Below, piece after piece: positions 26,054-53,563 of a DNA stretch of 64,000 nucleotides (its first letter is position 1; each line of letters opens with the position of its first letter). The notes under the pieces were generated by a model, which did not search any database, had not been told where the DNA came from, and saw only the letters and a program-made list of their open reading frames with translations. Where the stretch lies: NCBI GenBank assembly GCA_020852955.1, contig JADYZW010000047.1, forward strand, positions 24,436-88,435, read 5' to 3'. A program made the translations under genes and the position numbers. The stretch comes from Deltaproteobacteria bacterium (GTDB taxonomy: Bacteria > Desulfobacterota > Binatia > UTPRO1).

Positions 26054-26137
26054 GCCTGTCGGGTCGACGGCGCGGCACTATGCAGAAGGCGCCGCGCGCC
26101 TGTCAAATCATCCGCCCGCGTGCTAGCCCTGCGGACC

Positions 26138-27019: not shown

Positions 27020-27094
27020 TCCCGGCCGCGTCACGCCCGCTTCGCGAACCCGCGTTGCGCGAACGTGGGTCGATATGGGACAACGGTGGAGTTC

Positions 27095-29155: not shown

Positions 29156-29167
29156 CGGTACACCGAC

Positions 29168-30076: not shown

Positions 30077-31941
30077 CGCAGATCGGAGGGCGCGAGAAAC
30101 TCGCCAGGAGCGACCCGGATCGCGGCGTCGTGGGGACACGCGTAGACGCAGTTCGGGCCGTCGTAGCCGGCGCAGAGGTCGCAGACCGTGGCGCGCAGCG
30201 ACACGCCCTCGCGCGGGGGCGGCGGCCGCTTCAGCTCGGAGAGCTCGACCATGTTGATGTTCCCGAAGGGACACTGGTTGGCGCAGCGCTCGCAGCCGAT
30301 GCACCAGTCCTCGATCTTGATCTCGAGCGAATCCTCGCGGCGGATCGAGCCGACCGGGCAGCCGACCATGCACTTCGGGTCGGTGCAGGAGCGGCAGGCC
30401 ATGGTGACGAGGTACCGGCCGATGCGCGGCCCGTCGCGGGTAAAGCGCGCCACCCCGTCGTGGGCGTCGGCGCAGGCGCGCACGCACTCGTCGCAGCGCG
30501 TACAGCGTTCGAGATCTATGAGCAGGACGTTCTGCGAGTTGTAGAGGTTGAGCTCGACGGTCTCCTCGAGCATCGCCTGCTCGTTCGCCGAGCGGCTGAA
30601 GGCGGCCGTCTCGAGCGCGCGCCCAGCCCGCGTCGCGGCCGCCAGCGCCGCGGCATTGGCCTCCGCGAGGCGGCCGAGCGCCTCGGCCGGGACGCGGACC
30701 ACCTCGAAGCTGTCGAGTCCGGAGGCGCGCGCGACCCGCACCGCCGCAGGCGCGTCGACCGCGGTGACGTCCTCGCGTCCGATCTCGAAGACGTACTCGA
30801 CGACGCCGATGTGATCGCCCTCGGCGAGGATGGCCTCGCGGATGCGCTCGCCGTTCAGAAGCGTGTGATTCGCGCTGTCGAGATCGACGATCCAGAGCTC
30901 GCCGTCCCGCTCCTCGACGCGGCAATGGCGACGGCCGATCGCACGGCTCTCCTTCGGCACCAGCATGTCGCAGGACTCGCTGCGACCGATCGTGATGGGC
31001 TTGGTGAGCGCCAGCTCCCGGAAGAGAGTCGGGTGCGACGCGCAGCGCAGGACCAGCCTGGTCCGCGGACGCGCCGGCATGAGCGCCTCGAAGCCGAAGG
31101 CTCCGCCGCGACCGAGATAGGTGAAGACGAACTCCCCGCCGGCCTTCGTCTGCGACATCTTGATGGTGCCGGCACGCACGAGATACAGCGCGTCGGCCGG
31201 CGTGTCCTCCGCGTAGACGACGCCGTCCGAAACCTCGTCGGAGTCGGGCGTGAGGAGCGTGCTCACCGCCGCGAGCGCCTCGATCTGCGAGGCGCTCAGC
31301 TCCGCCAGGAGCGCGCTCTGATGCAGGGTGCTGCGGATGGCGTGCGCCTCGTAGGCCTCGTCGATGGCGTCGCCGGCGCCGCGAATCGTGTCGAGCACCG
31401 AGCGCAGCATCTCGAGCGCGACGCACCGGGTCTCGGCGCGCACCGTCGCCTCGCGCGGGTAGAAATTCACGCAGGTATCGAGCCCGAAGATCTCGCCGGG
31501 ACGGATCGCCGCGGGCCCGAGGCGGCGGTCGTGCGCGAGCGTCGCGTAGCGGCTCACCTCGCCGACCTCGGGACGTCCGGGTGTCCGCTCGGCGCGCCGC
31601 GTACGGCGCCGGAAACCGTCCAAGATCCGGGCGAGCGAGCGCGGCGTACGTCCCTCGACGCTCTTCGCCTCGACCCGCTCGGGAAGGAACGCGGTCGCGG
31701 CGCCCTCGACGAGGAGAAACGCGGTCGAGCCGTAGGCGCCGGCCTCGCAGATGACCTCGCCGGGCTCGTACTCGCGCCGTACGACGGCCTTGATGCCGGG
31801 CTCGCCGGCGTCCGGCGCGGCCCCGAGCAGCGTCGGCAGCTTCAGCTTCGCGCGCTTGCTGCTCTTGAAGAAGTCGAGCTCGGCGACCTCTTCGAGTGAG
31901 AGCCACTGGCCGTCGAGGCCATCGGCGTGTCGTCGTGTCAC
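30073..31941 (-). CDS. Cytoplasmic polyferredoxin (NrfC/DmsB-like 4x[4Fe-4S]) fused to two cNMP-binding-like domains and an FHA domain
   Basis: Start re-called at GTG 31941 (gagggtgag RBS), because the upstream part of the track ORF overlaps hldD in another frame. Domains are CNB1 (GEIFGLD...REATVRAETRCVALEM), CNB2 (LYLVRAGTIKM...GGAFGFEAL) and FHA (ITIGRSESCDMLV...RRHCRVEERDGELWIVDLDSANHTLLNG). The Cys clusters are CTRCDECVRAC, CRSCTDPKCMVGCP, CIGCERCANQCP and CDLC...CVYACP. No signal or Tat motif. Confidence 0.8.
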   Translation of the reverse strand: MTRRHADGLDGQWLSLEEVAELDFFKSSKRAKLKLPTLLGAAPDAGEPGIKAVVRREYEPGEVICEAGAYGSTAFLLVEGAATAFLPERVEAKSVEGRTPRSLARILDGFRRRTRRAERTPGRPEVGEVSRYATLAHDRRLGPAAIRPGEIFGLDTCVNFYPREATVRAETRCVALEMLRSVLDTIRGAGDAIDEAYEAHAIRSTLHQSALLAELSASQIEALAAVSTLLTPDSDEVSDGVVYAEDTPADALYLVRAGTIKMSQTKAGGEFVFTYLGRGGAFGFEALMPARPRTRLVLRCASHPTLFRELALTKPITIGRSESCDMLVPKESRAIGRRHCRVEERDGELWIVDLDSANHTLLNGERIREAILAEGDHIGVVEYVFEIGREDVTAVDAPAAVRVARASGLDSFEVVRVPAEALGRLAEANAAALAAATRAGRALETAAFSRSANEQAMLEETVELNLYNSQNVLLIDLERCTRCDECVRACADAHDGVARFTRDGPRIGRYLVTMACRSCTDPKCMVGCPVGSIRREDSLEIKIEDWCIGCERCANQCPFGNINMVELSELKRPPPPREGVSLRATVCDLCAGYDGPNCVYACPHDAAIRVAPGEFLAPSDLR

Positions 31942-32036: not shown

Positions 32037-33011
32037 CTACGCCTCCGCCAGCAAGCGCGCGACGTAGCGCCGCGCGCCTTCCTCGAGCGTCGTGAACGGC
32101 GTCGTCCACCCGGCGCCGCGCACGCGGTCCATCCTCGCTTCGGTCGCGTACTGGTAGCGCGCGCGCAGGCTCTCGGGCATCTCGATGAAGCGGATCCTCG
32201 GGGGAACGCCGAGCGCGGCAAACGTCGCGCGGGCGAGGTCGAGGAAGCTGCGGCTCGCGCCACTGCCGAGATTGAAGATGCCGCGCGCGAGCGGGCGCTC
32301 GAGCGCGAACCAGAGAACCGCGACGACGTCCTCGACATGGACGAAGTCGCGCCGCTGCTCGCCGTCGGCGACGTCCGGCCGATAGCTCTTGAAGAGCCGC
32401 ACCTCGCCGTCGGCGCGGATCTGGTCGTACGCGTGCAGGATGACGCTCGCCATCTTGCCCTTGTGGCGTTCGCCGAAGCCGTAGACGTTGAAGAACTTGA
32501 AGCCGCTCCAGGCCGGCGGCGTCCGACCGGCGCCCTCCTCGCCGAGCGCCCACAGATCGAACCGCTGCTTCGACTCGCCGTAGGGGTTGAGAGGACGGAG
32601 CTTCGGGATCGAGGCCTCGTCGTCGTCGTACCCGTTCGCTCCGTCGCCGTAGGTGGCGGCGCTGCTCGCGTAGACGAAGGGCACGCGGTGCGCGCTCGCC
32701 CAACGCCACAGCCGTTGCGAGTACTCGAGGTTGACCCGCCGGAGATGGTCGAGGTCCATCTCGGTCGTGTCGGTGCACGCGCCGAGGTGGACGATGCCGG
32801 CGAGCCCGGGCGCCTCCGCCGCGAGCCATCCGTCGAGCCCGTCGACGTCCACCCTGGCGCCGAAGTCGAGCCCCCGGTGCTCGGGGCGGTCCACGAAGCT
32901 CGCGAGGCGATCCACCGAAACGAGCGGCACGCCGCGCCGATTGCACGACTCGACGAAGCGCGCGCCGATGAAGCCGGCGGCGCCGGTGACGAGAAGCGCG
33001 CGCGCCGCCAT
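32037..33011 (-). CDS. hldD: ADP-L-glycero-D-manno-heptose 6-epimerase-like NAD-dependent epimerase
   Basis: It has a VTGAAGFIG Rossmann motif, the YASSAATYG catalytic region, and FKFFNVYGFGERHKGKMASVILH typical of HldD/RfaD. Confidence 0.72.
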   Translation of the reverse strand: MAARALLVTGAAGFIGARFVESCNRRGVPLVSVDRLASFVDRPEHRGLDFGARVDVDGLDGWLAAEAPGLAGIVHLGACTDTTEMDLDHLRRVNLEYSQRLWRWASAHRVPFVYASSAATYGDGANGYDDDEASIPKLRPLNPYGESKQRFDLWALGEEGAGRTPPAWSGFKFFNVYGFGERHKGKMASVILHAYDQIRADGEVRLFKSYRPDVADGEQRRDFVHVEDVVAVLWFALERPLARGIFNLGSGASRSFLDLARATFAALGVPPRIRFIEMPESLRARYQYATEARMDRVRGAGWTTPFTTLEEGARRYVARLLAEA

Positions 33012-33018
33012 GGCCGCC

Positions 33019-33999
33019 TCAGTCGCCGAGGAGATACGCGAAGATCAACGGCGCCACGATCGTCGCGTCCGACTGGATCATGAACTTCGGCGTCGCGACC
33101 TCGAGCTTGCCCCAGGTGATCTTCTCGTTCGGCACGGCGCCGGAATAGCCGCCGAAGCTCGTCACCGCATCCGAGATCTGCGCGAAGTATCCCCAGTACG
33201 GCACGTCGTCGCGCTGGAGATCCTGGATGATGGTCGGCACGGCGCAGATCGCGAAGTCGCCTGCGATGCCGCCGCCGACCTGGAAGAAGCCGACGCTCGG
33301 CGTCCCGTCGTCCTTGCCGCAGCTCTCGAGGTACCACTCGATGAGATGCTGCATCTGCTCGGTGCCGCTCTTCACGCACTGGTGATGCGGCAGCGCACCG
33401 CGCAGCACGCCGGCCGCGAACATGTTGCCGGTCGTGCTGTCCTCCCAGCCGGGCGAGTACACCGGAATCCCCTTCTCCCACGCGGCGAGGAGCCAGCTGT
33501 GCTCCGCGGGGATCTGGTAGAACCGCTCCATCTCGCCGTCGCGGAAAAGATCGTGGAGGAACTCGGCCTCGAACTTCCGCTCGCCGCGCTCGCAGGCGAG
33601 TTTCCAGCGCTCGAGGAGCCGACTCTCCAGGTGGCGCATGACGGTCTCGGGGATGCAGGTGTCCGTCACGCGGTTGAAGCCGCGCGCGTAGAGATCGGCC
33701 TCGTCCTGAGCGGAGAGCGCGCGCCAGTCCGGAATGATCTCGTACTCCTCGTAGGCCAGGAGGTTGAAGAGATCCTCTTCGAGATTGGCCCCGGTGCAGC
33801 TGATGGCGTGCACCTTGCCCGCCCGGATCATCCGGCTCAAGATCTGGCCGAGCTTGGCGGTGCTCATCGCGCCGGCGAGCGCCACCAGCATCTTGCCGCC
33901 CGCCGCGAGGTGCGCCTCGTAGGCCTTCGCGGCGGCGACCGTCTCCCGGCTGTTGAAGTGGAGGAAGTGCTTCTCCATGAACGCACGCACGGTGCTCAT
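33019..33999 (-). CDS. Deoxyhypusine synthase-like protein (DHS/homospermidine-synthase family)
   Basis: LVALAGAMSTAKLGQILSRMIRAGKVHAISCTGANLEEDLFNL and the remaining sequence match the bacterial DHS-like family. Confidence 0.82.
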   Translation of the reverse strand: MSTVRAFMEKHFLHFNSRETVAAAKAYEAHLAAGGKMLVALAGAMSTAKLGQILSRMIRAGKVHAISCTGANLEEDLFNLLAYEEYEIIPDWRALSAQDEADLYARGFNRVTDTCIPETVMRHLESRLLERWKLACERGERKFEAEFLHDLFRDGEMERFYQIPAEHSWLLAAWEKGIPVYSPGWEDSTTGNMFAAGVLRGALPHHQCVKSGTEQMQHLIEWYLESCGKDDGTPSVGFFQVGGGIAGDFAICAVPTIIQDLQRDDVPYWGYFAQISDAVTSFGGYSGAVPNEKITWGKLEVATPKFMIQSDATIVAPLIFAYLLGD

Positions 34000-34095
34000 G
34001 GCCCCGCTTGTAGGTGATATTCCGATGCTGCACCAGTCGGCGCGCCGGTTGCAGCTGGCGCGCGGCGCGTGTTACTCGGCGCACCGGGGGTGGGG

Positions 34096-35421
34096 ATGAT
34101 GCGCGCGACGTTCCTCCTGATCGCCTCGATCGGCTTCGGGATGCTGACGGCGACGCCCGTGGCGGCCGGCCCCGGGTTCCTCGGCGACGGGCGGTGCGGC
34201 AATCCCACGTGCCACGGCGCCGGACTCCCGAACCGCGAGAAGCCCGACCCCAAGTGGCGCCCGTGGAAGTCGGCGCGGACGCAGTGGATCAACACCAACA
34301 TCGACCGCCACTCCCGCGCCTATCGCACCCTCGAGACCGACGAGGGGAGGACGATCGCGCGCTACATGGGTATCGAGGCGACTCAGAGCGACAAGTGCCT
34401 CGCCTGCCATGCCCCCGCGGCGACGGCCGCGCCCGGCGGTCGTTACAAGAAGAGCGACGGCGTCACCTGCGAGCACTGTCACGGCCCCGCCGAGCTCTGG
34501 CTCGAGCCGCACTCGCAGAAGGATTGGCCGCAAACGCGCCGCCAGTACGTCTCGAAAGGCTTCTACGACAACGACGACTATGTGCTGCGCGCCCGTAACT
34601 GCGCGCGCTGTCACGTCGCGATCGACCATGAGATCGTGGCCGGCGGCCACCCGCCCCTCCAGTTCGAGCTGGTCGCGTACGCACAGATCATGAAGCACTG
34701 GGACGACCAGGACGAGCTGCCGGCGGGTGCGTTCAGCGTCGACCCCACGATCTGGGCGCTCGGGCAGGTCACCGGCCTCCGCGACGCGCTTCGCATGCTC
34801 TCGGAACGCGCCGACGGCGCCAACTACCAGTCGTTCGACCAGTTCCCCCACTTCGCCGACCGCAACTGCTACACCTGTCATCACAAACTCGTGGACGACG
34901 CGCTCCGCCAGGCGCGCGGCCACTACCTGATGGTCGACGCCGTGCTCTCGGGCGTCGCCACCGGCAAGCGCGACGAGCTCGCCGGCCTCTGGAACGCCGT
35001 CGCCGCCGCCGTCCCGTCGAGCCCGCAGGCCGCCAAGCAGAAGGCCGACGCCATGATCGGCTGGCTCGGAGCGCTGGAAGGGCGGCTCGATGCGATCGAC
35101 CAGAGTGCGACGCGCCGCATGCTCGCCCGCGTGACCGCGGGCGGCGACCGCCTGAAGCTCGCCGAGCGCTTCTCCTTCAGCCGCTCGAAGAGCTCCAACT
35201 GCGTCGACATCGACAACCCGAGCACCCCCTGGTGGTGGACGACCGGCGGCCCAGAGCAGAGCTATCTCGCGATCCGCGCCCTCTGCCGCCCCGCCTGGGG
35301 CGACCGCTGCGACGTCGTCAAGAGCGACATGCGCACGATGCTCGATGCGATCGACCGCTTCGCCTACAAGCCGGACCAGTTCGCAGCGAGCCTCGGAGCG
35401 GTGGGCGCGAAGCTGAAGTGA
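34096..35421 (+). CDS. Periplasmic multihaem cytochrome c (cytochrome c554-like family)
   Basis: Start re-called at ATG 34096 (MMRATFLLIASIGFGMLTATPVAAG). It has four CxxCH motifs (CLACH, CEHCH, CARCH, CYTCH) plus one CX4CH (CGNPTCH). Confidence 0.75.
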   Translation: MMRATFLLIASIGFGMLTATPVAAGPGFLGDGRCGNPTCHGAGLPNREKPDPKWRPWKSARTQWINTNIDRHSRAYRTLETDEGRTIARYMGIEATQSDKCLACHAPAATAAPGGRYKKSDGVTCEHCHGPAELWLEPHSQKDWPQTRRQYVSKGFYDNDDYVLRARNCARCHVAIDHEIVAGGHPPLQFELVAYAQIMKHWDDQDELPAGAFSVDPTIWALGQVTGLRDALRMLSERADGANYQSFDQFPHFADRNCYTCHHKLVDDALRQARGHYLMVDAVLSGVATGKRDELAGLWNAVAAAVPSSPQAAKQKADAMIGWLGALEGRLDAIDQSATRRMLARVTAGGDRLKLAERFSFSRSKSSNCVDIDNPSTPWWWTTGGPEQSYLAIRALCRPAWGDRCDVVKSDMRTMLDAIDRFAYKPDQFAASLGAVGAKLK

Positions 35422-38155: not shown

Positions 38156-41100
38156 CTAGCGACGTCCCGGGAGGAGACGCTCTTCCTCGGGCGCGGCCGG
38201 CTGTACGACGGGCCCGCCGATCGGGCCCATGCCCGCCTCGGGAAGCTCGGGGCGCAGAAAGGCCCGAGGCTTCGCGGGGGCCGAGTTGGCGACCGTGAAG
38301 ACCTCGCCCCCGTGCATGAAGAGGCGTTCCATTTCGGGGCGGGTGAAGGGCCGCGCGCCGAGCCGGCCGAATACGGCCACCTGATGGCCGCTCTCGTCGA
38401 CCGCTCGGTCGCGCTCGAGGCCGCGGGACAGCGCGACGGCCGGCCCATGCGTGTGGCGGGTGGCGATGAGCCGCGGCGTCGGGATCGGACTGAATCCGGC
38501 GCTTCCCGGGGTCTCTCCCGGAGTGACGAGTTGGAGGATGCGCAGGCCGTTCTTCCCGTCCGCGACATAGGCGAAGACGCTGGCGTCGGTGCCGCCGACC
38601 CGCACCGCACGGGTATCGTCGAGGGTGCCATTGGCGTCGAACATCTGGAAGAGGACGGGCCTGGTCGGGCGTTCGACGTCGACGATCGCGAGGCCCTGCG
38701 ATCCGGCCGGCACGTAGGCGTAGGTGCGCGAGACGGTGAGGTCGCCGGCTTCCGCAATGTCGAGCGACGCCACGAAGCGCGGCTGGTCGAGGCGCGTCAC
38801 GTCGAGCACGCGCAGGCCGCGGGCGTCGGTCACGAACGCGTAGCGGAACTGGACCTGCACCGCGCGGGGCTCGACGACGTCCGGCGCACCCACCTCCGAC
38901 ACGATCCGCGGATGGACCGGGTCGGCGATGCTCACGACGACGAGGCCGCGCTTACACAGCACGTAGGCGTACTCGCCGGCGATCGTGACGTAGCGAGCGT
39001 CGTCGAGCGCGCCCGCCGGATTGAAGCTCGCGACCTTCTCCAGGAAGTTGTTGAGCGGATCGCCATCGGCGAGCATGTCGACGTCCACCACGACGAGCCC
39101 TTCGACCTTGTCGCTCACGTAGGCGTACTTGTAGATCGGGTGCATCGGCTGCTCTTCGTTCGCCGGGTCGCGCTCGCGCCCGTAGTGGATCGGTTGGTTC
39201 GTCGGCAGCGCGACGCCGGTGGCCCACGGCGTCTTCACGTAAGCGCGTTGCCCGAGCGGCGAGACCGGAGCGGTGACGATGCGCTCCGAGAAGCCCTTGT
39301 TGTCGGTGTTGGCGACGTCGAAGACCCGGAACCCGCCCGGCCCGTTGGCGACGTAGAGGTACTCGCCGCGGAGTTGGACCGACTGCACGTCGACGGCCCG
39401 GCTCGCGAGGTCGACGCCCGGATGCTCGTACGCCTCCTGGAGTTCCAGGTCGTGATCGAGGTGGGTCTGGAAATTGTCGGGGTACACCATGCGGTGCAGG
39501 TTCGAGCCGATCACCGCCTGCGGCTCGTCCCATTCCGTCACGGCGACGGCCTCGAGCCCGTGCTCGCCCTCGCCGACCCACGCGAAGCGGCCGACGAAGT
39601 TCACGAAGTTCGTCCCGAGCGTCAGCACCTGCGCCATCCAGGCGTTGTTGTCGCCGTTCGCCGACACGTGGCAGTCGTCGCACTGCCGCGTCTCCCTGGC
39701 GCGCACCGTGTGCGCGAAGTGGGCGTTGAACGCCTGCGAGCTGTAACCTTCGGCCGAGACGGGCGGCTGCTGGTAGTACTGCCGCTCGCGGTTCGCGTTG
39801 GTGGTGCTGATGATGACGGCGCTCGACGAGCGCACCGGCGCGACCGTGTGGCCCTTCACCGTGCTGTGCCGGCCGAGCATGAAGATGTCGTGGCGCAGCA
39901 CTTGCGGATTGTACGAGGTCCAGTTGCGGGTCTCGCCGCCGTCGTAGTGCTTCTTCGCGATCTTCCAGTTCGCCTGCTGCGGCAGGTGGCAGCCGAAGCA
40001 GCTCGTCACCCACGACGTGTGGCACGCGATGCACGACATCTTGTCGGCGCCGTGCGCGAGCGCATCGGTCTTTTCGGGCACGTCGCCCCAGGTCTTGCCG
40101 TCGGCGCGCATCGTCTTCGCGAGGCGCGCCTTCTCGCTGTAGTGCTTGGAGAGCGGGTCGATCACGTCGACGACCTGCGGCACCTCCCACTCCTTGCCCT
40201 CCTCGAGCATCGAGCGCTGAATCAGCTCGCCGCCGATCCATTCGAAGCGCCGCTCGCCCCAGGGCGTGAGGCCGGTGAGGAGGTTCGTACCCCCGTCCGG
40301 CGCCGCCGGGCCGCTCGTCGTGACGGTCGCCCAGGTGTTCACGGTCCCGTGACAATCGACGCAGCCGATCTCGATCGCGTCGGGATACTCGCCGTAGATC
40401 TTGCCGTTGGAGTGGACGTCCTGCTGGAAGTGGCAGTCCACGCAGTGCATGCCCTTCTCGAGGTGGATGTCCTTCAGGTGCACGGCCTTGTCGAACTTCT
40501 TCGGGTCGTTCGGGTCGACGATCGTGCCGTTCTTGTCGAGGAGATTGCCCTTGCGGTCCTGGCTGTAGACGGCGCGGAAGATCCAGCCGTGGCCGTGATA
40601 GTCGGCGAAGGTCGTCTCCTTGGTCTTGGCATTGAGGTCGCTGACGTTCTTCAGAAACTCGCGGTCGGTCCAGAGTCCGCGGATGGCGGCCTCTTCCGGG
40701 TTGTGGTCGAGGCTCCTGTGCATGGGCTCGTAGTCCGCGACGTTGAGCGGCCATGGCTTGTCCACCGTCCGATGCCGCTGCTCGGCCGGCCAGAGCAGCT
40801 GGCCGTCGGTCTCGTAGTCCCACATCTGGTAGCCGAGGAACGTGTTCACGAACGAGTTCGGCTGGTGCATGTGGCAGACCATGCACTGGCTCGTCGGGAT
40901 CGCGCGCGTGAGGCGGTGCTCGATCGGGTGACCGGACTCGTCCTTCGGGATCGTCGGGTCCTTGCCGAAGTAGCGGCCGTCGTGGCCGTATTTCGCGTAC
41001 GACGCGGAGTGCGCCGGATCCTTGTCGTTGGCGTAGACGACGTGGCAGCCGGTGCAGCCGCTCGAGCGATAGTCGCCGGGGTGGTCGTTGGTGCCGAGAA

Positions 41101-42082
41101 ACGAGAGGTGCGGGTCGTTCAGGCGCGTCTTCTGGATGTTCAGCACGCCGGCGCTGATGCGGAGGTCGGTGCCGAGCCCGCGCGTGCCGAACTTCATGTC
41201 CGGCTTGCCGGGGAGATCGGGGAGCGGGCCGAGCCCAGGGTTCCCGACCTCGGACACGACCGAACGGTCGATCTTGCCCCCGCGCTCGAAGGCGCGGAGC
41301 GGATCGGGAGGCTGCGCGACGTTCCAGGCCGGAAGCGGCAGGAGGAACGGCAGCACGCCCTTGCGCCGCTCCTCGGGCGTCGGCGGCGGCACGGTATTGA
41401 GCTTCCGCGGCTTCCCGTCCCTCGTGTACGACTCGCCGACGATGTAGCGCTTGGCCGGCAGGATCCCGTTGTTGTACGCGGCGCCGCCCCAGAGCAGCGC
41501 CGACGTCGTCATGAGGCTGCGCTCGACCTGGCGCACCTCGTTCAGGTGGCACCCGCCGCAGGTCTCCGGAGCGACGCGGAGATCCCCGGGATTGATGAAC
41601 TGCAGGTATTCCGGCGACTCCTCGTTCAGCGCGGTGTAGCTGCGCTCGGGATTCGCGGAGCTGATCCGGTCATGGTTCTTCGGATCGCGCCAGACGTCGG
41701 GGCGGCGCGGGGCCACGTGCGCGTCCCGCTGCGCCGCCGCGTACTCGTCGGTGCCGGGCTTGGCGCCGCGCGCGCTCGCCTGCACGTTGCCTCCGTGGCA
41801 ATCGACGCAGCCGAGGTTCACCTGCCCCGAGACGTGCATCGGCTCGATGCCCTGATGGCAGGAGAGGCAGCCGGCGCTCTTCGCGTCGGCCTCGCCCTGC
41901 GTCTGGCGCAGGAGCTTCGGCGCGCTGTCCGGGATGCCGCCGACGCCCGGCTCGTGTGCCGCCGCCCCCGCCCCGGTCGCCGTCGTCTCGTCGGCCCGTA
42001 CGGGGCCGGTCACGCCGGTGGCCGCCATGACCGCCAGCGCCGACGCCACGCCGACGCCGACCCATCGCGTTCGATCGCTCAT
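38156..42082 (-). CDS. Decahaem c-type cytochrome fused to a C-terminal LVIVD-repeat beta-propeller
   Basis: Start re-called at ATG 42082 (gggagggtgga RBS; signal peptide MSDRTRWVGVGVASALAVMAATGVTGPVRA). The ten CxxCH motifs are CLSCH, CVDCH, CGGCH, CTGCH, CMVCH, CVDCH, CVDCH, CIACH, CFGCH, CDDCH. Six or more LVIVD-like units lie at about 38525-39380 (YLYVANGPGGFRVFDV, YAYVSDKVEGLVVVDV, YAYVLCKRGLVVVSI, YAFVTDARGLRVLDV, YAYVPAGSQGLAIVDV, FAYVADGKNGLRILQL). Confidence 0.85.
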   Translation of the reverse strand: MSDRTRWVGVGVASALAVMAATGVTGPVRADETTATGAGAAAHEPGVGGIPDSAPKLLRQTQGEADAKSAGCLSCHQGIEPMHVSGQVNLGCVDCHGGNVQASARGAKPGTDEYAAAQRDAHVAPRRPDVWRDPKNHDRISSANPERSYTALNEESPEYLQFINPGDLRVAPETCGGCHLNEVRQVERSLMTTSALLWGGAAYNNGILPAKRYIVGESYTRDGKPRKLNTVPPPTPEERRKGVLPFLLPLPAWNVAQPPDPLRAFERGGKIDRSVVSEVGNPGLGPLPDLPGKPDMKFGTRGLGTDLRISAGVLNIQKTRLNDPHLSFLGTNDHPGDYRSSGCTGCHVVYANDKDPAHSASYAKYGHDGRYFGKDPTIPKDESGHPIEHRLTRAIPTSQCMVCHMHQPNSFVNTFLGYQMWDYETDGQLLWPAEQRHRTVDKPWPLNVADYEPMHRSLDHNPEEAAIRGLWTDREFLKNVSDLNAKTKETTFADYHGHGWIFRAVYSQDRKGNLLDKNGTIVDPNDPKKFDKAVHLKDIHLEKGMHCVDCHFQQDVHSNGKIYGEYPDAIEIGCVDCHGTVNTWATVTTSGPAAPDGGTNLLTGLTPWGERRFEWIGGELIQRSMLEEGKEWEVPQVVDVIDPLSKHYSEKARLAKTMRADGKTWGDVPEKTDALAHGADKMSCIACHTSWVTSCFGCHLPQQANWKIAKKHYDGGETRNWTSYNPQVLRHDIFMLGRHSTVKGHTVAPVRSSSAVIISTTNANRERQYYQQPPVSAEGYSSQAFNAHFAHTVRARETRQCDDCHVSANGDNNAWMAQVLTLGTNFVNFVGRFAWVGEGEHGLEAVAVTEWDEPQAVIGSNLHRMVYPDNFQTHLDHDLELQEAYEHPGVDLASRAVDVQSVQLRGEYLYVANGPGGFRVFDVANTDNKGFSERIVTAPVSPLGQRAYVKTPWATGVALPTNQPIHYGRERDPANEEQPMHPIYKYAYVSDKVEGLVVVDVDMLADGDPLNNFLEKVASFNPAGALDDARYVTIAGEYAYVLCKRGLVVVSIADPVHPRIVSEVGAPDVVEPRAVQVQFRYAFVTDARGLRVLDVTRLDQPRFVASLDIAEAGDLTVSRTYAYVPAGSQGLAIVDVERPTRPVLFQMFDANGTLDDTRAVRVGGTDASVFAYVADGKNGLRILQLVTPGETPGSAGFSPIPTPRLIATRHTHGPAVALSRGLERDRAVDESGHQVAVFGRLGARPFTRPEMERLFMHGGEVFTVANSAPAKPRAFLRPELPEAGMGPIGGPVVQPAAPEEERLLPGRR

Positions 42083-42123
42083 CGTCCACCCTCCCATGCC
42101 GCGCCTGCCCCGCATGGGCTTCA

Positions 42124-43842
42124 TCAGAAGACCAGCACCACTTCGGTGCCGACCTGATAGAGCGTGTTGCTCTCCGTAATGTCCGTGAGCCCCCCGAACG
42201 GCTGGAGGATCGCCCCGAAGCCCTTCACGATGACGTTGTTGTTGAGGAAGGGCCGGTACTCGACGCCAAGGCTCAGGTCGATGCCGATGTCCTGGCGAAC
42301 GTCGGGCTGCTTCAGCAGGATCTGGAGCGGCTCGGTGTCGACGAACCGGAGGTAGGTGGCGTTGCCGATCAGGCTCACCTTCTGGGTGAGATCGGCCGTC
42401 GCGCCGACGTTCACCATCAGGATGCCGGGATTCACGAAGTTCGGCTGGCCCTGGGTCTTCGAGCTGCGCAGATCGGGCACGACGCTGTTGCGCTGCATGA
42501 GCGCGACGCCGCCGCGATCGGTGACGCGGATCGATTGGCGCTGCCAGTAGCCGAAGTTGCCGCCCATGATCTGCGGGTTGTCGAGGATCGTGTCGAAGCC
42601 CCGCGCGGTGTCGTCGCGCGGGTCGCTGTCGCCGGACGACCAGAAGACCGACGCCTGGTAGCGCATCCAGTCGCGGTCCATCGAGAGCTCGAGGAACGCC
42701 TGCTGCGCCTCGATGTCCACGTCGCGTCCCGCGATCGGGTTCGACGTGTCGTGACCGAGGGCCTGGTAGAAGGCGTGGCTGACGTTCACCCAGCCGAGGT
42801 GCCCCTCGCCGGTCCACCCGAGGTAGAAGACGTCGAGGTTGTGGGGCCGCGCGATGCCGACGGGATCGGGCCGGACCAGGAAGCCCTGGTTGTCGAAGAC
42901 GAACCCCGCGTCCTTCCCGTCGTCGTTCAGGTAGTGGACGCTGAACTGGGTCGTGTAGCCGAGCTTCAGGAAGTCCTGGATGTAGAGGTTGCCGATCGCG
43001 ATCTGCTGGTCGCGCAGACCGAACGTGTTGAGGTCCGAGTTCGTGTCCTTCTCCGCCGGATAGAAATACGCGAGGTTGTACTGGTAGCGGTTCGAATTGG
43101 CGTTGCCGAAGAACCGGATGCCCTGGTTCACGTCCGAGAAGACGAGGCTCCGGAAGTCGCTGTTGAACGGCTGCCGGCCGATCTTCGTCGAGAGGAAGTC
43201 GTAGTTCACCGAGGTGTCGAGGAGGTGGATCTCGACGAAGGCCTCCTGCAGGGCCGCGTGGGTCGTGAGCCGATCGGTCGCGTCGCGGACGTCGGGATCG
43301 ACGAGACCGTTCTCACCGGTCGCGAGCAGGTTCACGTCGAAGGCGCCCGCGAGGACGATCTGCCATTCGAACGGCTTGAACGACGTCTGGCCCTTCTGCA
43401 GCTCGAATCGCGTCACGAACTTCTGATCGAAAAGGATCGCGTTGCGGTTCCCGAAGAAATCGAAGCTGCCCGGGTCCTCGGTGGACACGCCGCTCGGCGA
43501 CGGCGCGCCTCGGCCCTCGACGCTCGTCTTCGAAATGCCGGTCAGCTTCATGAAGACGTCGTCGCCGAGGATCGGTATGTCGCCCTTGAGCACGTTCTGG
43601 TTGTAGGGATCCCACCAGTGGCCCTTGGTGTTGAGTTGGTAGGGCGGCAGCTCCATCCGCCAGCGATCCTCGAAGAGCTCCGTCGCGGGCGTATCGCTGC
43701 CGACCGCCGGGCTCTCGACCGTGACGCTCGGTCCGCCCCCGGGAGCGTCCTCGGCCCGCGCTGACGGCGCGGCGAGCGCCCACGCGAGCACGGCGGCGCA
43801 GGCGACGAACGGAACGACGTCGTGACGCGCGCGGCGGGCCAT
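42124..43842 (-). CDS. Outer-membrane beta-barrel protein (porin-like partner of the cytochrome)
   Basis: Start re-called at ATG 43842 (MARRARHDVVPFVACAAVLAWALAAPSARA signal peptide). It shows an alternating amphipathic strand pattern, abundant Tyr/Asn/Gly/Asp, and a C-terminal ...YQVGTEVVLVF ending in Phe, as in the OMP beta-signal. Confidence 0.75.
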   Translation of the reverse strand: MARRARHDVVPFVACAAVLAWALAAPSARAEDAPGGGPSVTVESPAVGSDTPATELFEDRWRMELPPYQLNTKGHWWDPYNQNVLKGDIPILGDDVFMKLTGISKTSVEGRGAPSPSGVSTEDPGSFDFFGNRNAILFDQKFVTRFELQKGQTSFKPFEWQIVLAGAFDVNLLATGENGLVDPDVRDATDRLTTHAALQEAFVEIHLLDTSVNYDFLSTKIGRQPFNSDFRSLVFSDVNQGIRFFGNANSNRYQYNLAYFYPAEKDTNSDLNTFGLRDQQIAIGNLYIQDFLKLGYTTQFSVHYLNDDGKDAGFVFDNQGFLVRPDPVGIARPHNLDVFYLGWTGEGHLGWVNVSHAFYQALGHDTSNPIAGRDVDIEAQQAFLELSMDRDWMRYQASVFWSSGDSDPRDDTARGFDTILDNPQIMGGNFGYWQRQSIRVTDRGGVALMQRNSVVPDLRSSKTQGQPNFVNPGILMVNVGATADLTQKVSLIGNATYLRFVDTEPLQILLKQPDVRQDIGIDLSLGVEYRPFLNNNVIVKGFGAILQPFGGLTDITESNTLYQVGTEVVLVF

Positions 43843-44543
43843 CACCAACTCCCCCACAGCCACAGCGCCGCCGCCACCAGCGCCCCGATCGCGAGCACGA
43901 GCCACCGCCGGCCGCCGGGCTTCGCGCCCGTCCCGGCTCCCTCTTCCGCCGCCGGAGCGCCGCGCTCGTCGAGGAAGATCAGCTCGTCGCCTCCGAGCTG
44001 CACTCGCATTTTGTGCGTCAAGGGAACCTCCTCCTTCACCTGTGTGCCGTCCACCAGCACGACCTTCCCGGTGACCGGCGTGAGGTACCAGTGGCCGTCG
44101 CGCACCGTCAGCTGCGCGTGCTCGCGCGACGCCGTCTGCGAATAGAGCCGGAGGTCGCACGAGGGCAGCCGGCCCATCAGATAGTGCGCGCGCTCGAGCG
44201 TGACGATGTCGGAGCGTCCCGGCGGCTGCACGCGCTGGAGGCGCGCCGGCGGCGGCGCCTGCGGCTGGAGGTCGGCGAGCAGGATCGTGTGCTCCGCGAA
44301 GTCGCCGCCCGCGGCCGGAGCCGTCGGCACGATCGTCCCGGGCGTCGCGGACGTCTTCGGCATCGGAGGCGGCGTCGCCGCGAGGCGCGTCGACTCGTCG
44401 AGCGGCGGCGCCGGGCTCGCGGGCGCGGCGGGTGTCGGCGGGGACGGAGGCGACGAGACTTGCGGCGCCCCCGGCAGCTTCGGCGGCGCGCCGCCGATCC
44501 GCGTGTGCTCGTCGAATCCCGTGTCGTCCCCGTCCTTCGCCAT
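43842..44543 (-). CDS. Tail-anchored FHA-domain protein
   Basis: A Pro/Ala-rich disordered N-terminus is followed by an FHA core (YLMGRLPSCDLRLYSQTASREHAQLTVRDGHWYLTPVTGKVVLVDG) and a single C-terminal TM helix (WLVLAIGALVAAALWLWGSW). Its stop overlaps the barrel ATG by 1 nt (TGATG). Confidence 0.8.
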   Translation of the reverse strand: MAKDGDDTGFDEHTRIGGAPPKLPGAPQVSSPPSPPTPAAPASPAPPLDESTRLAATPPPMPKTSATPGTIVPTAPAAGGDFAEHTILLADLQPQAPPPARLQRVQPPGRSDIVTLERAHYLMGRLPSCDLRLYSQTASREHAQLTVRDGHWYLTPVTGKVVLVDGTQVKEEVPLTHKMRVQLGGDELIFLDERGAPAAEEGAGTGAKPGGRRWLVLAIGALVAAALWLWGSW

Positions 44544-46461: not shown

Positions 46462-48882
46462 TCAGGCGGGTGGAATCGTCAACTTCACGGGACCTTTGAT
46501 CTTCGCGACGCACGCCAACCGATACTTCACGGGATTCCAGTCGAGCTGCCGCACCTTTTCGATGGTGGGCCGCTCCATGCCGCCCGGATCGGGCGGCACG
46601 AAGTGCTCGGCGCCCTCGATGATCTCGACCGTGCAGAGGCCGCACTGGCCGATCTTGCACTCCCAATCGAGCGGCTCTTCGTGATGATCGCGCGGCGCGC
46701 CGTCCTTGCCGACCTTGCAATCGGGAAAGCGCGTGACGAGCTCGTGGAAATACGCGTGCAGCAGGTCCTGGTCCGGCGCGACCGGGATCGTGAGCTTGTA
46801 CTTCTCGTAGTCGAGCGCGGCGACGAGCCCGCCCGCGGTGGCGGCGGCGAGCGCGGCCGGAGCGGGTGCGGCCGGAGCGGCCGCGGCAGGCGGCGCGGCG
46901 GCGTGCGGCGCGGCGACGACCACGTCGCTCGGCGCGAGCTTCGATACCGGCGCGAACCGTTCGAAGCGGAACCGCTTGCTCGCGACCCGGAACTCGTCGC
47001 CGTTCGCGAGCCGGGTCGGCGCCGTCAGCTTCACGTACGTGCCGTTCTTGCTCCCGAGATCGAAGATGCCGAGCGCGCCGCCCTCGATCCGCAACTGCGC
47101 GTGGCGCCGGGACAAGCTCAGATCCGCCTTGTCGAGGGACACCGCCTCGACCCGGCCGACGATCATCCCCTTGCCTGGGATCGGATAGGTTTCCCGCTGC
47201 ACGCCCTCGGCGTCGAAGTGGGTGACGGCCCAGCCGTTCCCCTGCTCCACGACCATGAGGATCTGCGCGCCGATCCAGACGAGGTCGTTCGCGACGAGCG
47301 GCCGCCCCTCCTGCCCTTTGGCGCGGAGCCACACGCCGGCCCCGCCGCTCTCGTCCTCGAGCGCGTAGCCGTCGTCCTGGCGGGTCAGGAGCGCGTGCGT
47401 GTCGGCCATGTAGACGTCGTCGGCGCAGGCGATGTCGGGCGTCTTCCTGCCGATCGTGACCTGATCCTTCGTGAGCGGGAACGCCTCTTCCGGCGAGTCG
47501 TCGGGATGGAGGCTCACCAGCTGCGCCGCGCTCGCCGGACGCTTGGCGGCCTCGGCGTGCGACGGCGCCGGCGGCACGACGACCGGCGGCGGCGGAGCGC
47601 TCGGCGCCACGGACGGCGCGCTCGAGGGCGCGGCGGCCGCCGGCTTCGGCGGCGCGGGCGCCGGCGTCGGCGTCGGCGCCACCTCGGACTTCGGCACCTC
47701 CATGCCGGCGCGCAGCGCGATCGCCTCGACCGCCTTCACCGCATCGACCATGGCGGCCTTGATGTTGCGCTTCTCGACGACCTGCTCGTACGAGCCCGCG
47801 TCGTCGAAATCCTTGCAGCGCAGATATTTCGGCCCGCGCGCGTCGCCCACCAGGAACACGCCCGGCAACGACACCTCGCCGTCGTGGTTCACCAGCATCT
47901 GCGGTCGGTTGTTGAGGAGCGGGATCTTGATGCCGCAGCCTTGCAGCAGCTTCACCGGCAGGTCCTCGCCGATGCAGGCCACCACCTGATCCTTGGCGAA
48001 CTCGAGGTGGACGGTCTCACAGGGCCTGCCCGCCGAGATCTTGCGGTCGATCCGCACCGACAGGTACTCGAGCTTGTCGTCGGCGGTGACCACCGCGACG
48101 GGCTCCGAGAACGCGAGATAGCGGACGTTGCCGTTCCCGACGTAGGCGGAGAAGAACACCTCGGAGAGCGCCCGCGACACCTTCGGCATGCCGCCGCCGC
48201 GATACGACCAGTAGATCGCGCTCTGATCCTCGCCCGCGATCTTCGCGCCCGAGATCGCGATCACCGCCTCCGCCGCCGACGTGCCGCCGCCGATCACGAG
48301 CGCGGGCCTCCCGACGTAGTCCTTCGCGTCGTCGAGGCGGAACGCGATGCCGTCGGTGTTGCCGGGGATGTCGAACCGGCGCGGCACGCCCGCGCCGATC
48401 GCGAGGAGGACATTGCGCGCTTGGTAGCGCTCTTCCTCGCCGGTGCGATGGTTCCAGGTCCGGACGCTCCACACGCCCTCGGGCAGCCGGTCGAGCCCCG
48501 TGAACTCGTGGCCGATCTTCGCGGTCAGGCCGTACTCCTTGTACTTGGCCTTCCAGACCTTCACGAGATCGTCCTTGTCGATGTCGTCGAACGCGAGGGC
48601 CGCGAGCATCGGCCCGCCGGCCGGGAACTGGAGCTTGTCGCCGCCGCCGTAGCTCGGAAGGATCTGCTTCTCCTTCGGGTAGTCGCGGATGCGCTTCATC
48701 AGGTCGTCGTAGTCGACGACCAGGCAGGAGAGTCCGAGCTCCTTGCAGCGCACCGCCGCCGCGGTGCCGGCGGGACCGCCGCCCGCGACGAAGACGTCGA
48801 CGACGTCCGGCACGGCAGCCGGCTGGTCGACCTTCAGCGTCCCTCGGCGGGTATAGTCCGCCTCGTCTATCTTGTCGGACAT
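46462..48882 (-). CDS. FAD/NAD(P)-binding oxidoreductase fused to two FHA domains and a plant-type [2Fe-2S] ferredoxin domain
   Basis: Start re-called at ATG 48882 (MSDKIDEADY). FAD fold VDVFVAGGGPAGTAAA, second nucleotide fold PALVIGGGTSAAEA, then GVFLVGDA. After a Pro/Ala linker come FHA1 (VTIGRKTPDIACADDVYMADTHALLTRQDDGYALEDES) and FHA2 (MIVGRVEAVSLDKADLSLSRRHAQLRIEGGALGIFDLGSKNGTYV). The C-terminal CKIGQCGLC...LAC matches the C-x4-C-x2-C...C ferredoxin pattern. No signal peptide. Confidence 0.8.
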   Translation of the reverse strand: MSDKIDEADYTRRGTLKVDQPAAVPDVVDVFVAGGGPAGTAAAVRCKELGLSCLVVDYDDLMKRIRDYPKEKQILPSYGGGDKLQFPAGGPMLAALAFDDIDKDDLVKVWKAKYKEYGLTAKIGHEFTGLDRLPEGVWSVRTWNHRTGEEERYQARNVLLAIGAGVPRRFDIPGNTDGIAFRLDDAKDYVGRPALVIGGGTSAAEAVIAISGAKIAGEDQSAIYWSYRGGGMPKVSRALSEVFFSAYVGNGNVRYLAFSEPVAVVTADDKLEYLSVRIDRKISAGRPCETVHLEFAKDQVVACIGEDLPVKLLQGCGIKIPLLNNRPQMLVNHDGEVSLPGVFLVGDARGPKYLRCKDFDDAGSYEQVVEKRNIKAAMVDAVKAVEAIALRAGMEVPKSEVAPTPTPAPAPPKPAAAAPSSAPSVAPSAPPPPVVVPPAPSHAEAAKRPASAAQLVSLHPDDSPEEAFPLTKDQVTIGRKTPDIACADDVYMADTHALLTRQDDGYALEDESGGAGVWLRAKGQEGRPLVANDLVWIGAQILMVVEQGNGWAVTHFDAEGVQRETYPIPGKGMIVGRVEAVSLDKADLSLSRRHAQLRIEGGALGIFDLGSKNGTYVKLTAPTRLANGDEFRVASKRFRFERFAPVSKLAPSDVVVAAPHAAAPPAAAAPAAPAPAALAAATAGGLVAALDYEKYKLTIPVAPDQDLLHAYFHELVTRFPDCKVGKDGAPRDHHEEPLDWECKIGQCGLCTVEIIEGAEHFVPPDPGGMERPTIEKVRQLDWNPVKYRLACVAKIKGPVKLTIPPA

Positions 48883-48962
48883 CGACCCCGATCCCTTCTC
48901 GGGAACACCACGCCGCCCCACCGTAGAAGCCGCGCCTTCCTACTGATTCGGCGTCGAAGTTG

Positions 48963-50504
48963 TCAAGGATTCGCGGCCGGACGCGAGCGGAAGTAGTCGA
49001 CGATCGCGGCCGCGAAGGCGGGCACCGTGTAGTCCTTCGGCTCGACATCGACCGCGAGGCCGAGATCGCGCGCCGTCGCCGCGGTCACCGGACCGATACA
49101 TCCGACGGCGACGCCCGCGAGCACCGCGCCCAGGTCGCGGCCCGGAAAGAGCCCCGCGAAGTGCGTGACCGTACTCGAGCTCGTGAAGGTGACGAGGTCG
49201 GGACGCGGCGAGCCGGCGAAGAGCGCGGGCGCGGCCGCGGCCTCCGGCGGCAGCACCGTCCGGTAGGTCGCGACGTCGTCGACGAGCGCGCCCGCCGCCC
49301 GCAGGCGCTCCGGCAGGACCCGGCGCGCGCCGGCGGCGCGGGCAAGGAGCACCCGCTTCCCGGCGACGCCGCGCGCGACGAGGCCGTCGGCGACCGCCTC
49401 GGCGCGGTACTCCCCGGGCGTGAGCGCCGCCGCGAGCCCGCGCGCTCCGATGGCAGCCGCCGTCGCCGGCCCGATCGCCGCGATCGCGACGCCGGCGAGC
49501 TCGCGGACGTCGCGCCCGAGCGCGCGCAGGCGGTCGAAGAACACCTCGACGCCGTGCGGGCTCGTGAGCACGAGCCAGGCATAGCGGCCGAGGTCGGCGA
49601 GCGCGGCGTCCCACGCGGCGAACGACGCGGGAGGCTCGGGCGCGATCGTCGGCAGCGACACCACCTCGGCGCCCTCGCCCTCGAGGAGTGCGGCGAACGC
49701 CTCGGCCCGTCCGCGCGGCCGCGTCACGACGACGCGACGGCCGAAGAGCGGGCGGCGCTCGAACCAGCCGAGCTCCGCGGCCAATCCGACGACTCCCCCG
49801 ATCACGACGAGCGCCGGCGGCCGCAGTCCGGCGGCCGCGACGAGCGCCGGCAGTGTCGCAACGGTGCCGCGCACCACGCGCTGGCGCGCGGTCGTGCCCC
49901 AGCGGATCGCCGCGGCGGGCGTCGCGGGGTCGAGCCCGCCGGCGGTCAGGCGGTCGAGGTTGCCAGAGAGTTGCAGCACGCTCATGTAGAGCACGAGCGT
50001 GCCGCCCTGCCGCGCGAGCGCCTCCCACGGCACGGCACGGTCGCCCTCGCGGTCCGCCTCGTGACCGGTCACGAAGCTCACGACCGACGCGTGATCGCGG
50101 TGGGTGAGCGGGATCCCCGCGTAGGCCGGCGCCGCGACGGCCGCCGTGACGCCCGGCACCACCTCGAACGGAACGCCGGCCCGCACGCACGCGCGCGCCT
50201 CCGCGCCGCCACGACCGAACACGAAGGGATCGCCGCCCTTGAGGCGCACGACCGAGCGTCCGGCGCGCGCGTATCCGAGCATCGTCTCGGTGATCTGCGC
50301 TTGCGTGAGGCGCACGCCGGAGCCGTGCTTGCCGGTGAAGATCACCTCGCAGTCGGGTCGGGTGAACGCGAGCAGACTCGGGTTCGAGAGGGCGTCGTAG
50401 ATCACGACGTCGGCGCTCTCGAGACGGCGCTTGCCGTGGAGCGTGAGGAGCCCCGGGTCGCCCGGCCCGGCGCCGACCAGGCTGACGCGGCCGCCGGCGC
50501 TCAC
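48963..50504 (-). CDS. cobA/hemD: Bifunctional uroporphyrinogen-III C-methyltransferase / uroporphyrinogen-III synthase
   Basis: N-terminal SUMT (VSLVGAGPGDPGLLTLHGKRRLESADVVIYDAL, VRLKGGDPFVFGRGGAE) with a C-terminal HemD-like half. Confidence 0.88.
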   Translation of the reverse strand: MSAGGRVSLVGAGPGDPGLLTLHGKRRLESADVVIYDALSNPSLLAFTRPDCEVIFTGKHGSGVRLTQAQITETMLGYARAGRSVVRLKGGDPFVFGRGGAEARACVRAGVPFEVVPGVTAAVAAPAYAGIPLTHRDHASVVSFVTGHEADREGDRAVPWEALARQGGTLVLYMSVLQLSGNLDRLTAGGLDPATPAAAIRWGTTARQRVVRGTVATLPALVAAAGLRPPALVVIGGVVGLAAELGWFERRPLFGRRVVVTRPRGRAEAFAALLEGEGAEVVSLPTIAPEPPASFAAWDAALADLGRYAWLVLTSPHGVEVFFDRLRALGRDVRELAGVAIAAIGPATAAAIGARGLAAALTPGEYRAEAVADGLVARGVAGKRVLLARAAGARRVLPERLRAAGALVDDVATYRTVLPPEAAAAPALFAGSPRPDLVTFTSSSTVTHFAGLFPGRDLGAVLAGVAVGCIGPVTAATARDLGLAVDVEPKDYTVPAFAAAIVDYFRSRPAANP

Positions 50505-52734: not shown

Positions 52735-52736
52735 GG

Positions 52737-53558: not shown

Positions 53559-53563
53559 GGCGA

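Follow-up and report, generated by a model that had tools for sequence, protein, structure and literature searches.

Multihaem envelope pathways drive the cycling of metals, sulfur and nitrogen, and those that are well studied come from a few model genera. In the MtrCAB structure, MtrB forms a 26-stranded sheath around the decahaem cytochrome, and MtrCAB, PioAB, MtoAB and the Omb-Oma-Omc systems of Geobacter share with the locus described here a barrel gene beside a decahaem gene and a longer multihaem pathway starting at the inner membrane. Hmc/Tmc of sulfate reducers and the NOX/FRE ferric-reductase-type conduits bypass quinones. Propeller proteins are associated with multihaem cytochromes in an envelope electron pathway of Desulfovibrio ferrophilus IS5, where they are separate NHL-type proteins with a role that is only proposed (PMC5815863), and in “Ca. 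Tenderia” a role has been proposed for NHL proteins and unlinked LVIVD proteins (bioRxiv 10.1101/2022.05.06.490989). Here we describe a locus in which an LVIVD beta-propeller is, unlike in these cases, covalently fused to a decahaem cytochrome and is encoded beside an outer-membrane barrel. It lies in a stretch of 64,000 nucleotides (nt; hereafter “the window”, G+C content ~70%) on contig JADYZW010000047.1 of assembly GCA_020852955.1, a metagenome-assembled genome (MAG) of a “Deltaproteobacteria bacterium”; the public record labels both proteins “hypothetical” and the closest relatives are labelled Binatia. An earlier reading of the window made from the letters alone (the sequence-only reading) had described this pair only, and the pair now turns out to be one part of a ~27-kb module of at least seven genes. 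The module is widespread and unnamed, with an unusual architecture and built-in signalling. The pair and its main elements are arranged as follows.

38156 to 42082, minus strand: decahaem cytochrome c (haem attachment predicted from motifs) fused to an LVIVD beta-propeller, 1308 amino acids (aa), Sec signal peptide; enclosing open reading frame 38156-42817, minus strand
38387 to 38416, minus strand: (D/E)RDRAVDESG motif just past the propeller, here ERDRAVDESG
38528 to 39361, minus strand: six LVIVD units (propeller blades), from a regular-expression search and Pfam, AlphaFold2 (AF2) and Foldseek
42124 to 43842, minus strand: outer-membrane beta-barrel with a predicted AlgE/OprD-like fold, 572 aa, signal peptide

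The start of the cytochrome-propeller gene is placed at ATG 42082, which yields 1308 aa, is preceded at a distance of 7 nt by a GGGAGGG Shine-Dalgarno sequence and coincides with the start in the public gene record. An alternative ATG at 42124 would yield 1322 aa and overlaps the stop of the barrel gene by 1 nt. Translational coupling through this overlap was considered and rejected because ATG 42082, with its strong Shine-Dalgarno sequence and the public call, is more likely, leaving a gap of 41 nt between the two genes. Counted from ATG 42124, as are all residue numbers below, ten CxxCH motifs lie at residues 86, 106, 189, 357, 414, 561, 588, 698, 709 and 815. Outside these motifs the sequence contains a single Cys and no further Cys pairs, and CxxCK is not present. 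In an alignment of 33 sequences from several phyla all ten motifs are invariant, as are 14 His beyond them, and the non-haem motifs GD(Y/F)RSSGC, CHMHQPN, ADYHGHGW and DNNAW are invariant or nearly so. The secreted 1308-aa protein with ten CxxCH motifs that the sequence-only reading had reported was thus borne out. The haem part covers residues ~76-858 and the propeller ~845-1235, after which a conserved tail follows. With a Pfam Cytochrom_c3_2 score of 30.8 bits (cut-off 25), the protein is a multihaem cytochrome c, its haem attachment being predicted from the motifs. An Rfam scan of the whole window gave no match, and a promoter and terminator scan returned nothing exceeding shuffled sequence.

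The LVIVD repeats, previously placed at about 38525-39380, were recovered by pattern search as six units at residues 922-937, 1000-1015, 1052-1066, 1095-1109, 1135-1150 and 1184-1199. Against Pfam LVIVD (PF08309, cut-off 20.2) the whole protein reaches 83.9 bits, and its C-terminal 464 aa, matched in five stretches, reach 93.3 bits. When residues 76-1275 were modelled with AF2 from the 33-sequence alignment, the predicted local distance difference test (pLDDT) score was 80-95 over residues ~845-1235, with the strands grouped in fours. In Foldseek this region matches 6-8-bladed propellers (E ~5e-8), i.e., beta-TrCP, LRP6, YbhE, cytochrome cd1 nitrite reductase, NirN and Dtox_1751, all of them generic matches. 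As modelled, the LVIVD region thus folds as a beta-propeller of 6 or 7 blades, in line with the fold that had been read from the repeats. The combination of c-type haem domains with a beta-propeller recalls cd1 nitrite reductase, NirN and the alpha subunit of hydrazine synthase at the level of architecture only; the propeller match is generic (E ~1e-7, 10-12% identity). No haem d1 or metal-binding signature and no cluster of invariant His in the blades was visible in the 33-sequence alignment. Homology to hydrazine synthase, to which a paper had pointed us, was rejected: the propeller differs, the haem count differs and there is no sequence link.

Behind the last LVIVD unit follows a tail of 123 aa, which contains the (D/E)RDRAVDESG motif. 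Its RDRA and DESG and the next Q are invariant across phyla in the 33-sequence alignment, and the motif is specific enough to serve as a search pattern for the family. The same stretch is modelled by AF2 at a pLDDT below 50. Conservation combined with low model confidence is often seen in segments that become ordered only when bound to a partner, and the motif is a candidate docking peptide. The proteins of the Binatia-like clade end, in addition, in a conserved ERLLPGR(R/N) behind a variable Pro-rich linker (38156-38200, minus strand, in the window), which is absent in other phyla and may be a clade-specific sorting or docking signal.

The relatives of the haem part are less easily placed. 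Because AF2 modelled it at a pLDDT below 50, Foldseek returned propeller matches only. Sequence and profile searches against PDB chains gave only marginal matches to TvNiR, YncE and ActA, the one to the octahaem nitrite reductase TvNiR being at motif level only (E 0.002-0.015) and that to ActA having an E of 0.09. Together with the absence of CxxCK, this gives no support for membership of the octahaem nitrite reductase/HAO/NrfA enzyme superfamily. ExtM (NCBIfam NF040943), a cytochrome of the selenite/tellurite reduction operon, is matched in three short stretches, with 87 bits where the cut-off is 800. In NCBIfam neither DmsE/MtrA nor OmcA/MtrC was matched at E <= 0.01.

The fusion itself is found in a large family. 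About 8000 protein clusters match the cytochrome-propeller protein; the best 120 of these are full length (1206-1385 aa, with one partial of 1114 aa) and 57-92% identical, and between phyla identities of 50-60% extend over ~1200 aa. The haem part alone finds 2739 proteins in a library of representatives at 50% identity. Every complete family member examined carries the LVIVD propeller fused to the decahaem domain, including, among the matches listed, the complete divergent ones (43-47% identity). Four of the short matches were read and proved to be frameshifted calls; the others look like truncated gene calls since their alignments start at residue 1-2 of the match or run to its end. The survey of homologues proposed with the sequence-only reading thus found no haem-only or propeller-only split form among the matches listed from the representative library, so that the fusion looks obligate by sequence. 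That the observation is far beyond chance follows from the thousands of full-length homologues that keep every feature. Two longer members (1648 and 1702 aa) share the same core, and the one of 1648 aa has extra N-terminal haem modules of the c7/c3 type (Pfam), from which it follows that the haem count across the family is not fixed at ten.

The barrel gene directly upstream encodes a 572-aa protein ending in VVLVF, in agreement with the barrel-like protein with a C-terminal Phe that had been described. Its AF2 model (mean pLDDT 80.4, from an alignment of 36 homologues) has 18 long strands, which is wider than the limit of about 16 below which the sequence-only reading considered a barrel too narrow for a cytochrome segment. 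In Foldseek against the PDB the top 15 matches are all AlgE (E 8e-17 to 2e-15; template-modelling score 0.61-0.72, target-normalised), followed by the 18-stranded OprD/Occ channels, Campylobacter MOMP and general porins. The sequence contains no CxxCH and, consequently, lacks the Cyc2-type fused haem motif. The barrel of the window has no Pfam, NCBIfam or PDB sequence match of its own, and none to Pfam Alginate_exp (PF13372) at E <= 0.1; among its homologues, of which there are more than 4600, PF13372 is matched by 4 of the 36 in the alignment (best E 1.9e-6), and one source names a homologue “alginate export family protein”. The 18-stranded fold is thus shared with AlgE and OprD/Occ. Unlike for AlgE, there are no alginate or polysaccharide synthesis genes nearby, the neighbours in every locus read being genes for cytochromes, HbpS-like, FHA and Fe-S proteins; unlike AlgE and OprD, this barrel is partnered with a multihaem protein and has a conserved periplasmic N-terminal extension.

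If the N-terminus is taken to be periplasmic, the turns on the periplasmic side measure 2-9 aa and the external loops are long. One of these, L7, is 71 aa in length and 72% conserved, and probably folds into the barrel lumen, as loops do in OprD-/AlgE-type channels. Before the first barrel strand lies a conserved stretch of ~40 aa; SH3, Ig-like or CarboxypepD_reg domains are found at the N-terminus in other lineages. This suggests that the N-terminal extension is a periplasmic docking arm.

The two genes keep together wherever they occur. The barrel gene is located directly upstream on the same strand in all 73 loci for which 1.9 kb or more of upstream DNA is available, and a look-up that started from a barrel of 49% identity found the cytochrome-propeller gene immediately downstream, so that the linkage noticed in the window extends to other genomes. 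When one genome per species was scanned, a full-length relative was found in at least 576 species genomes, and the family members in the genome and cluster sets are 50-90% identical. They occur in Binatia, Nitrospirota, several classes of Acidobacteriota, Methylomirabilia, Planctomycetota, Bdellovibrionota, Chitinophagales (Bacteroidota) and Dormibacterota, and also in many Beta- and Gammaproteobacteria, including the isolates Limnobacter alexandrii LZ-4 and Fontimonas sp. SYSU GA230001; Limnobacter, Methylobacter and Nitrospira are aerobic hosts among them. The pair in a Candidatus Dormiibacterota MAG may reflect contamination of the bin or provide a clue to the envelope type of this group.

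All parts of the module are present in the window, in two minus-strand blocks and one plus-strand gene that together cover ~27 kb and at least seven genes and reach into the cytoplasm. Apart from the pair, the window contains the following genes, including cyclic nucleotide monophosphate (cNMP)-binding proteins.

24578 to 27799: signalling genes, namely an MscS-like channel with a cNMP domain (minus strand), a nucleotide cyclase-FHA protein (plus strand) and a PP2C phosphatase (plus strand)
27824 to 29167, minus strand: membrane-anchored decahaem cytochrome c, one N-terminal membrane helix, ten CxxCH
29168 to 30076, minus strand: membrane protein with about five helices, putative dihaem cytochrome b (tblastn; sequence)
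30073 to 31941, minus strand: cytoplasmic protein with cNMP-binding, FHA and poly-[4Fe-4S] ferredoxin domains (Pfam; tblastn to homologues in other phyla)
34069 to 35421, plus strand: cytochrome c554-like, four CxxCH and one CX4CH, Pfam Cytochrome_C554 44 bits
35561 to 37915, minus strand: secreted protein, 784 aa, 62 Cys, encoded directly downstream of the cytochrome-propeller gene
43842 to 44543, minus strand: FHA-domain protein with a C-terminal membrane anchor, Pfam FHA 46 bits
44588 to 46432, minus strand: tandem HbpS/GlcG-like lipoprotein, 614 aa, lipobox LAAC, Pfam HbpS-like
46462 to 48921, minus strand: cytoplasmic flavoprotein with Pyr_redox_2/3, two FHA and 2Fe-2S
48963 to 54238, minus strand: haem-synthesis genes (cobA/hemD fusion, hemC, hemA, sirohaem-synthase-like), directly upstream of the module

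The same set of genes recurs in contigs of Nitrospirota, Thermoanaerobaculia and Calditrichota, in which it consists of a protein with Pyr_redox, cNMP and [4Fe-4S] domains, a 277-aa membrane protein, an FHA-multihaem cytochrome, the HbpS-like protein, the barrel, the cytochrome-propeller protein and the c554-like cytochrome. Within 10 kb of the cytochrome-propeller gene, the HbpS-like gene was found in 65 of 82 loci, the c554-like gene in 55, the FHA-cytochrome in 53, the flavo/Fe-S protein in 51 and the protein with five transmembrane helices (5-TM) in 50. The distribution of domains over these genes varies. The flavoprotein of the window, which resembles YpdA/TrxR and HydN/AegA, is the counterpart of the Pyr_redox, cNMP and 4Fe-4S protein of other phyla, and the FHA domain, here on a separate protein whose stop is overlapped by the ATG of the barrel gene (TGATG), is fused in other phyla to the membrane-anchored multihaem cytochrome, the cytochrome part of which is homologous to the anchored decahaem protein of the window. 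A CHASE2 nucleotide cyclase often accompanies the module in other phyla, at a place equivalent to that of the signalling genes of the window. The HbpS-like lipoprotein is 41% identical to its Nitrospirota homologue (tblastn), and the c554-like gene adjoins the cytochrome-propeller gene in most loci.

The 5-TM protein, whose helix count is taken from a homologue in Ferrigenium, has two pairs of His in membrane helices at a spacing of i/i+14, and its Pfam matches (Ferric_reduct, DUF4405 and cytochrome b561) are sub-threshold only; judged from its sequence it is probably a dihaem b conduit. A cytoplasmic Fe-S or flavin protein followed by membrane haem b and periplasmic multihaem cytochromes is the order also found in Hmc/Tmc and NOX/FRE, to which there are weak HmcA/QrcA and Ferric_reduct matches; unlike in those systems, all matches lie far below the cut-offs, and the cNMP/FHA domains and the outer-membrane end are without counterpart. 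The set of a cytoplasmic [4Fe-4S] protein, a 5-TM protein and an FHA single-helix multihaem cytochrome is also like the FHA-nonahaem “NHC” cluster of Ferrigenium straubiae, a likeness that for the anchored decahaem protein of the window means the same three-gene type, by description rather than by sequence, and the barrel, the haem-propeller protein, the HbpS-like protein and the c554-like cytochrome are, in contrast, not part of the “NHC” cluster as described (bioRxiv 10.64898/2026.01.22.701106).

From these data we tentatively favour a regulated haem chain by which cytoplasmic NAD(P)H would feed a haem-propeller enzyme that is located in the periplasm and docked beneath a solute channel of its own. 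The domain content, the modelled folds of barrel and propeller, the invariant linkage of the two genes and the taxonomic breadth are direct results; what we infer with regard to localization, docking, haem b, direction of flow and substrate is as follows. The cytoplasmic flavo/Fe-S protein, with its thioredoxin-reductase-like FAD domain, HydN-like [4Fe-4S] domain and cNMP and/or FHA domains, would exchange electrons with NAD(P)(H), and the His-rich 5-TM protein, probably with two haems b, would take them over the inner membrane. The membrane-anchored deca- or nonahaem cytochrome and the c554-like cytochrome would relay them across the periplasm to the decahaem-propeller protein as the terminal oxidoreductase, docked on the periplasmic side to the 18-stranded AlgE/OprD-like barrel, possibly tethered beneath it through the N-terminal arm of the barrel and the DRDRAVDESG tail. 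In this scheme the barrel would sheathe no haems, but would give a soluble substrate or product passage across the outer membrane to the haem-propeller unit, with the propeller supplying a substrate-binding or docking face, while cyclic-nucleotide and FHA/PP2C signalling would gate the flow of electrons. With outward flow, which we favour, the module would act as a quinone-independent reductase or electron sink for a soluble, probably anionic acceptor.

The periplasmic location of the cytochrome-propeller protein is suggested by several features. The signal peptide is of the plain Sec type and has no lipobox in most family members, including the protein of the window; the Chitinophagales member is without the C-terminal domain of the type IX secretion system (T9SS); and an 18-stranded barrel with an in-folded loop would be unable to sheathe a decahaem domain as MtrB does. 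The identity of 50-60% across phyla, together with the surplus of invariant His, points to an enzyme rather than a mere wire. A number of observations weigh against this scheme, however. Lipobox-like signals are present in homologues from Planctomycetota (LAAC) and Nitrospira (LQGC), so that anchoring may differ between lineages. A partner exposed at the cell surface could dock just as well on the conserved external loops of the barrel, and a chain of over 25 c-type haems that ends at a barrel in the outer membrane also resembles a pathway for extracellular electron transfer. A count of lumen charges (13 positive, 18 negative), which is crude and too rough to indicate the charge of the substrate, revealed no positive pore like that of AlgE. 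Finally, the low pLDDT of the haem part meant that its model showed no active site or open haem, and the PDB and NCBIfam searches yielded no solved or curated relative that would supply a substrate.

The scheme can be widened to a new class of regulated, quinone-independent electron pathway that leads from cytoplasmic NAD(P)H via a NOX-like haem b and ~25 c-type haems to a haem-propeller catalytic unit at an AlgE-like pore, that is switched by cyclic nucleotides and FHA/PP2C, and that has spread horizontally with its own ccm genes among soil, groundwater and freshwater bacteria of at least ten phyla. In this full form we regard it as possible, although rather unlikely.

An alternative that we consider unlikely is a porin-cytochrome conduit for extracellular electron transfer, in which part of the cytochrome is sheathed or anchored by the barrel, the haem-propeller protein sits at the surface with the propeller as its mineral-docking face, and insoluble Fe(III)/Mn(IV) oxides, humics or partner cells accept the electrons. 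In support of this, the barrel and multihaem genes are invariably adjacent with the barrel first, at least 25 c-type haems and haem b run from the inner towards the outer membrane, the external loops of the barrel are conserved and the hosts are soil and groundwater bacteria. The ombB-omaB-omcB order of Geobacter is likewise barrel first. Surface cytochromes are, however, rarely as conserved between phyla as the 50-60% identity observed here, and the family also occurs in obligate aerobes. The barrel, moreover, has 18 strands, an AlgE/OprD-like fold and a probably in-folded loop, and no MtrB-type protein is among its 50 best structural hits listed; the cytochrome-propeller protein matches neither the MtrA/DmsE nor the MtrC/OmcA family; most members are without a lipobox and the Bacteroidota member is without a T9SS domain. 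The system thus misses two features that define Mtr, i.e., the width of the barrel (18 strands and AlgE/OprD-like, versus 26 in MtrB) and the cytochrome families. It further differs from MtrCAB and Omb-Oma-Omc in its fused propeller, in the size of ~1300 aa mostly without a lipoprotein signal, and in an inner-membrane end that is a flavo/Fe-S/haem b module instead of a quinol dehydrogenase of the CymA/ImcH type. That propeller proteins accompany outer-membrane cytochromes in D. ferrophilus (PMC5815863) speaks for a conduit again. Of the interpretation given in the sequence-only reading, therefore, the fusion, the propeller, the barrel and the linkage stand, but the trans-outer-membrane conduit is not supported as stated, given the 18-stranded AlgE/OprD-like barrel, the probably in-folded L7 and the lack of a lipobox in most members, and a conduit through the barrel is doubtful.

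Electrons might also flow inward, which seems to us more unlikely still. The haem-propeller protein would then oxidize a donor that enters via the barrel, for example Fe(II), Mn(II), a reduced compound of sulfur or nitrogen, or reduced humics, and the c554-like and anchored cytochromes would hand the electrons over to the trio of the inner membrane, from which they would reach the cytoplasm or the quinone pool. The Pfam Cytochrome_C554 match of the c554-like partner recalls the pathway from HAO to c554, which is an oxidative one, and the hosts include groups rich in lithotrophs (such as Nitrospirota, Methylomirabilia and Burkholderiales). The reduction of NAD(P)+ from Fe(II) or Mn(II) would, however, be uphill and no energy-coupling subunit was seen in the cluster, metal oxidation in the periplasm risks encrustation, and the sequence is silent on direction. 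In favour of inward flow, the same inner-membrane trio is expressed in the Fe(II) oxidizer F. straubiae, for which it was described as novel and of unknown function and was suggested to bring in electrons from Fe(II) oxidases of the outer membrane, but going by the haem counts in that preprint Ferrigenium is without the barrel and haem-propeller pair (bioRxiv 10.64898/2026.01.22.701106).

Very improbable is a redox sensor of the envelope, in which the haem-propeller and HbpS-like proteins would sense an external redox compound and modulate the cyclase, cNMP, FHA and PP2C genes: these genes are densely and conservedly associated with the module and the HbpS-like protein matches the Pfam family of Streptomyces HbpS, a haem-based redox sensor partner, but more than 25 haems, a multi-Fe-S flavoprotein, dedicated ccm and haem-synthesis genes and a dedicated channel are costly for such a function, and it is the electron carriers themselves that bear the signalling domains, as would suit a gating of flux.

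Neither the fusion of a cytochrome with LVIVD repeats nor the barrel-cytochrome pair is described in the full-text literature searched, a search that left most subscription papers outside its scope; this agrees with the sequence-only reading, which had been aware of no characterized cytochrome with this fusion, and the family is provisionally regarded as undescribed. Of the module, the same literature covered only the inner-membrane trio, in the Ferrigenium preprint. The module brings together parts that are not known in combination, namely the fusion of a cytochrome with a propeller, a channel that is narrow and AlgE-like, a quinone-bypassing route at the inner membrane and built-in cNMP/FHA control. 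The family is annotated only as “hypothetical” in its at least 576 species genomes, which include ordinary aerobes as well as the abundant and poorly understood Acidobacteriota, Binatia, Nitrospirota and Methylomirabilia. Should the module prove to be a sink for electrons or a route for their uptake, genome-based views of redox metabolism in these groups would change.

Some neighbouring genes of the window deserve mention. The tetrapyrrole-synthesis block directly upstream fits the demand of at least 35 haems, and its sirohaem genes are a hint of an alternative haem pathway. For the secreted 62-Cys protein Pfam and NCBIfam gave no match, and among the loci compared it was found only in that of the closest relative, which makes it a lineage-specific addition. 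The two halves of the cluster are separated by a deoxyhypusine-synthase-like gene and an NAD-dependent epimerase (32037-33999, minus strand), for which no link to the redox module was seen.

The cultured carriers L. alexandrii LZ-4 and Fontimonas sp. make the module directly testable. In L. alexandrii LZ-4 the locus spans positions 659-23734 and the barrel has an N-terminal SH3 domain. The module is accompanied there by dedicated ccm genes, for a CcmA/B fusion and CcmH/CycH, and by genes for a CHASE2-cyclase, a protein with a FecR domain and a 764-aa protein without annotation. The module of Limnobacter looks like a transferable, self-sufficient cassette.

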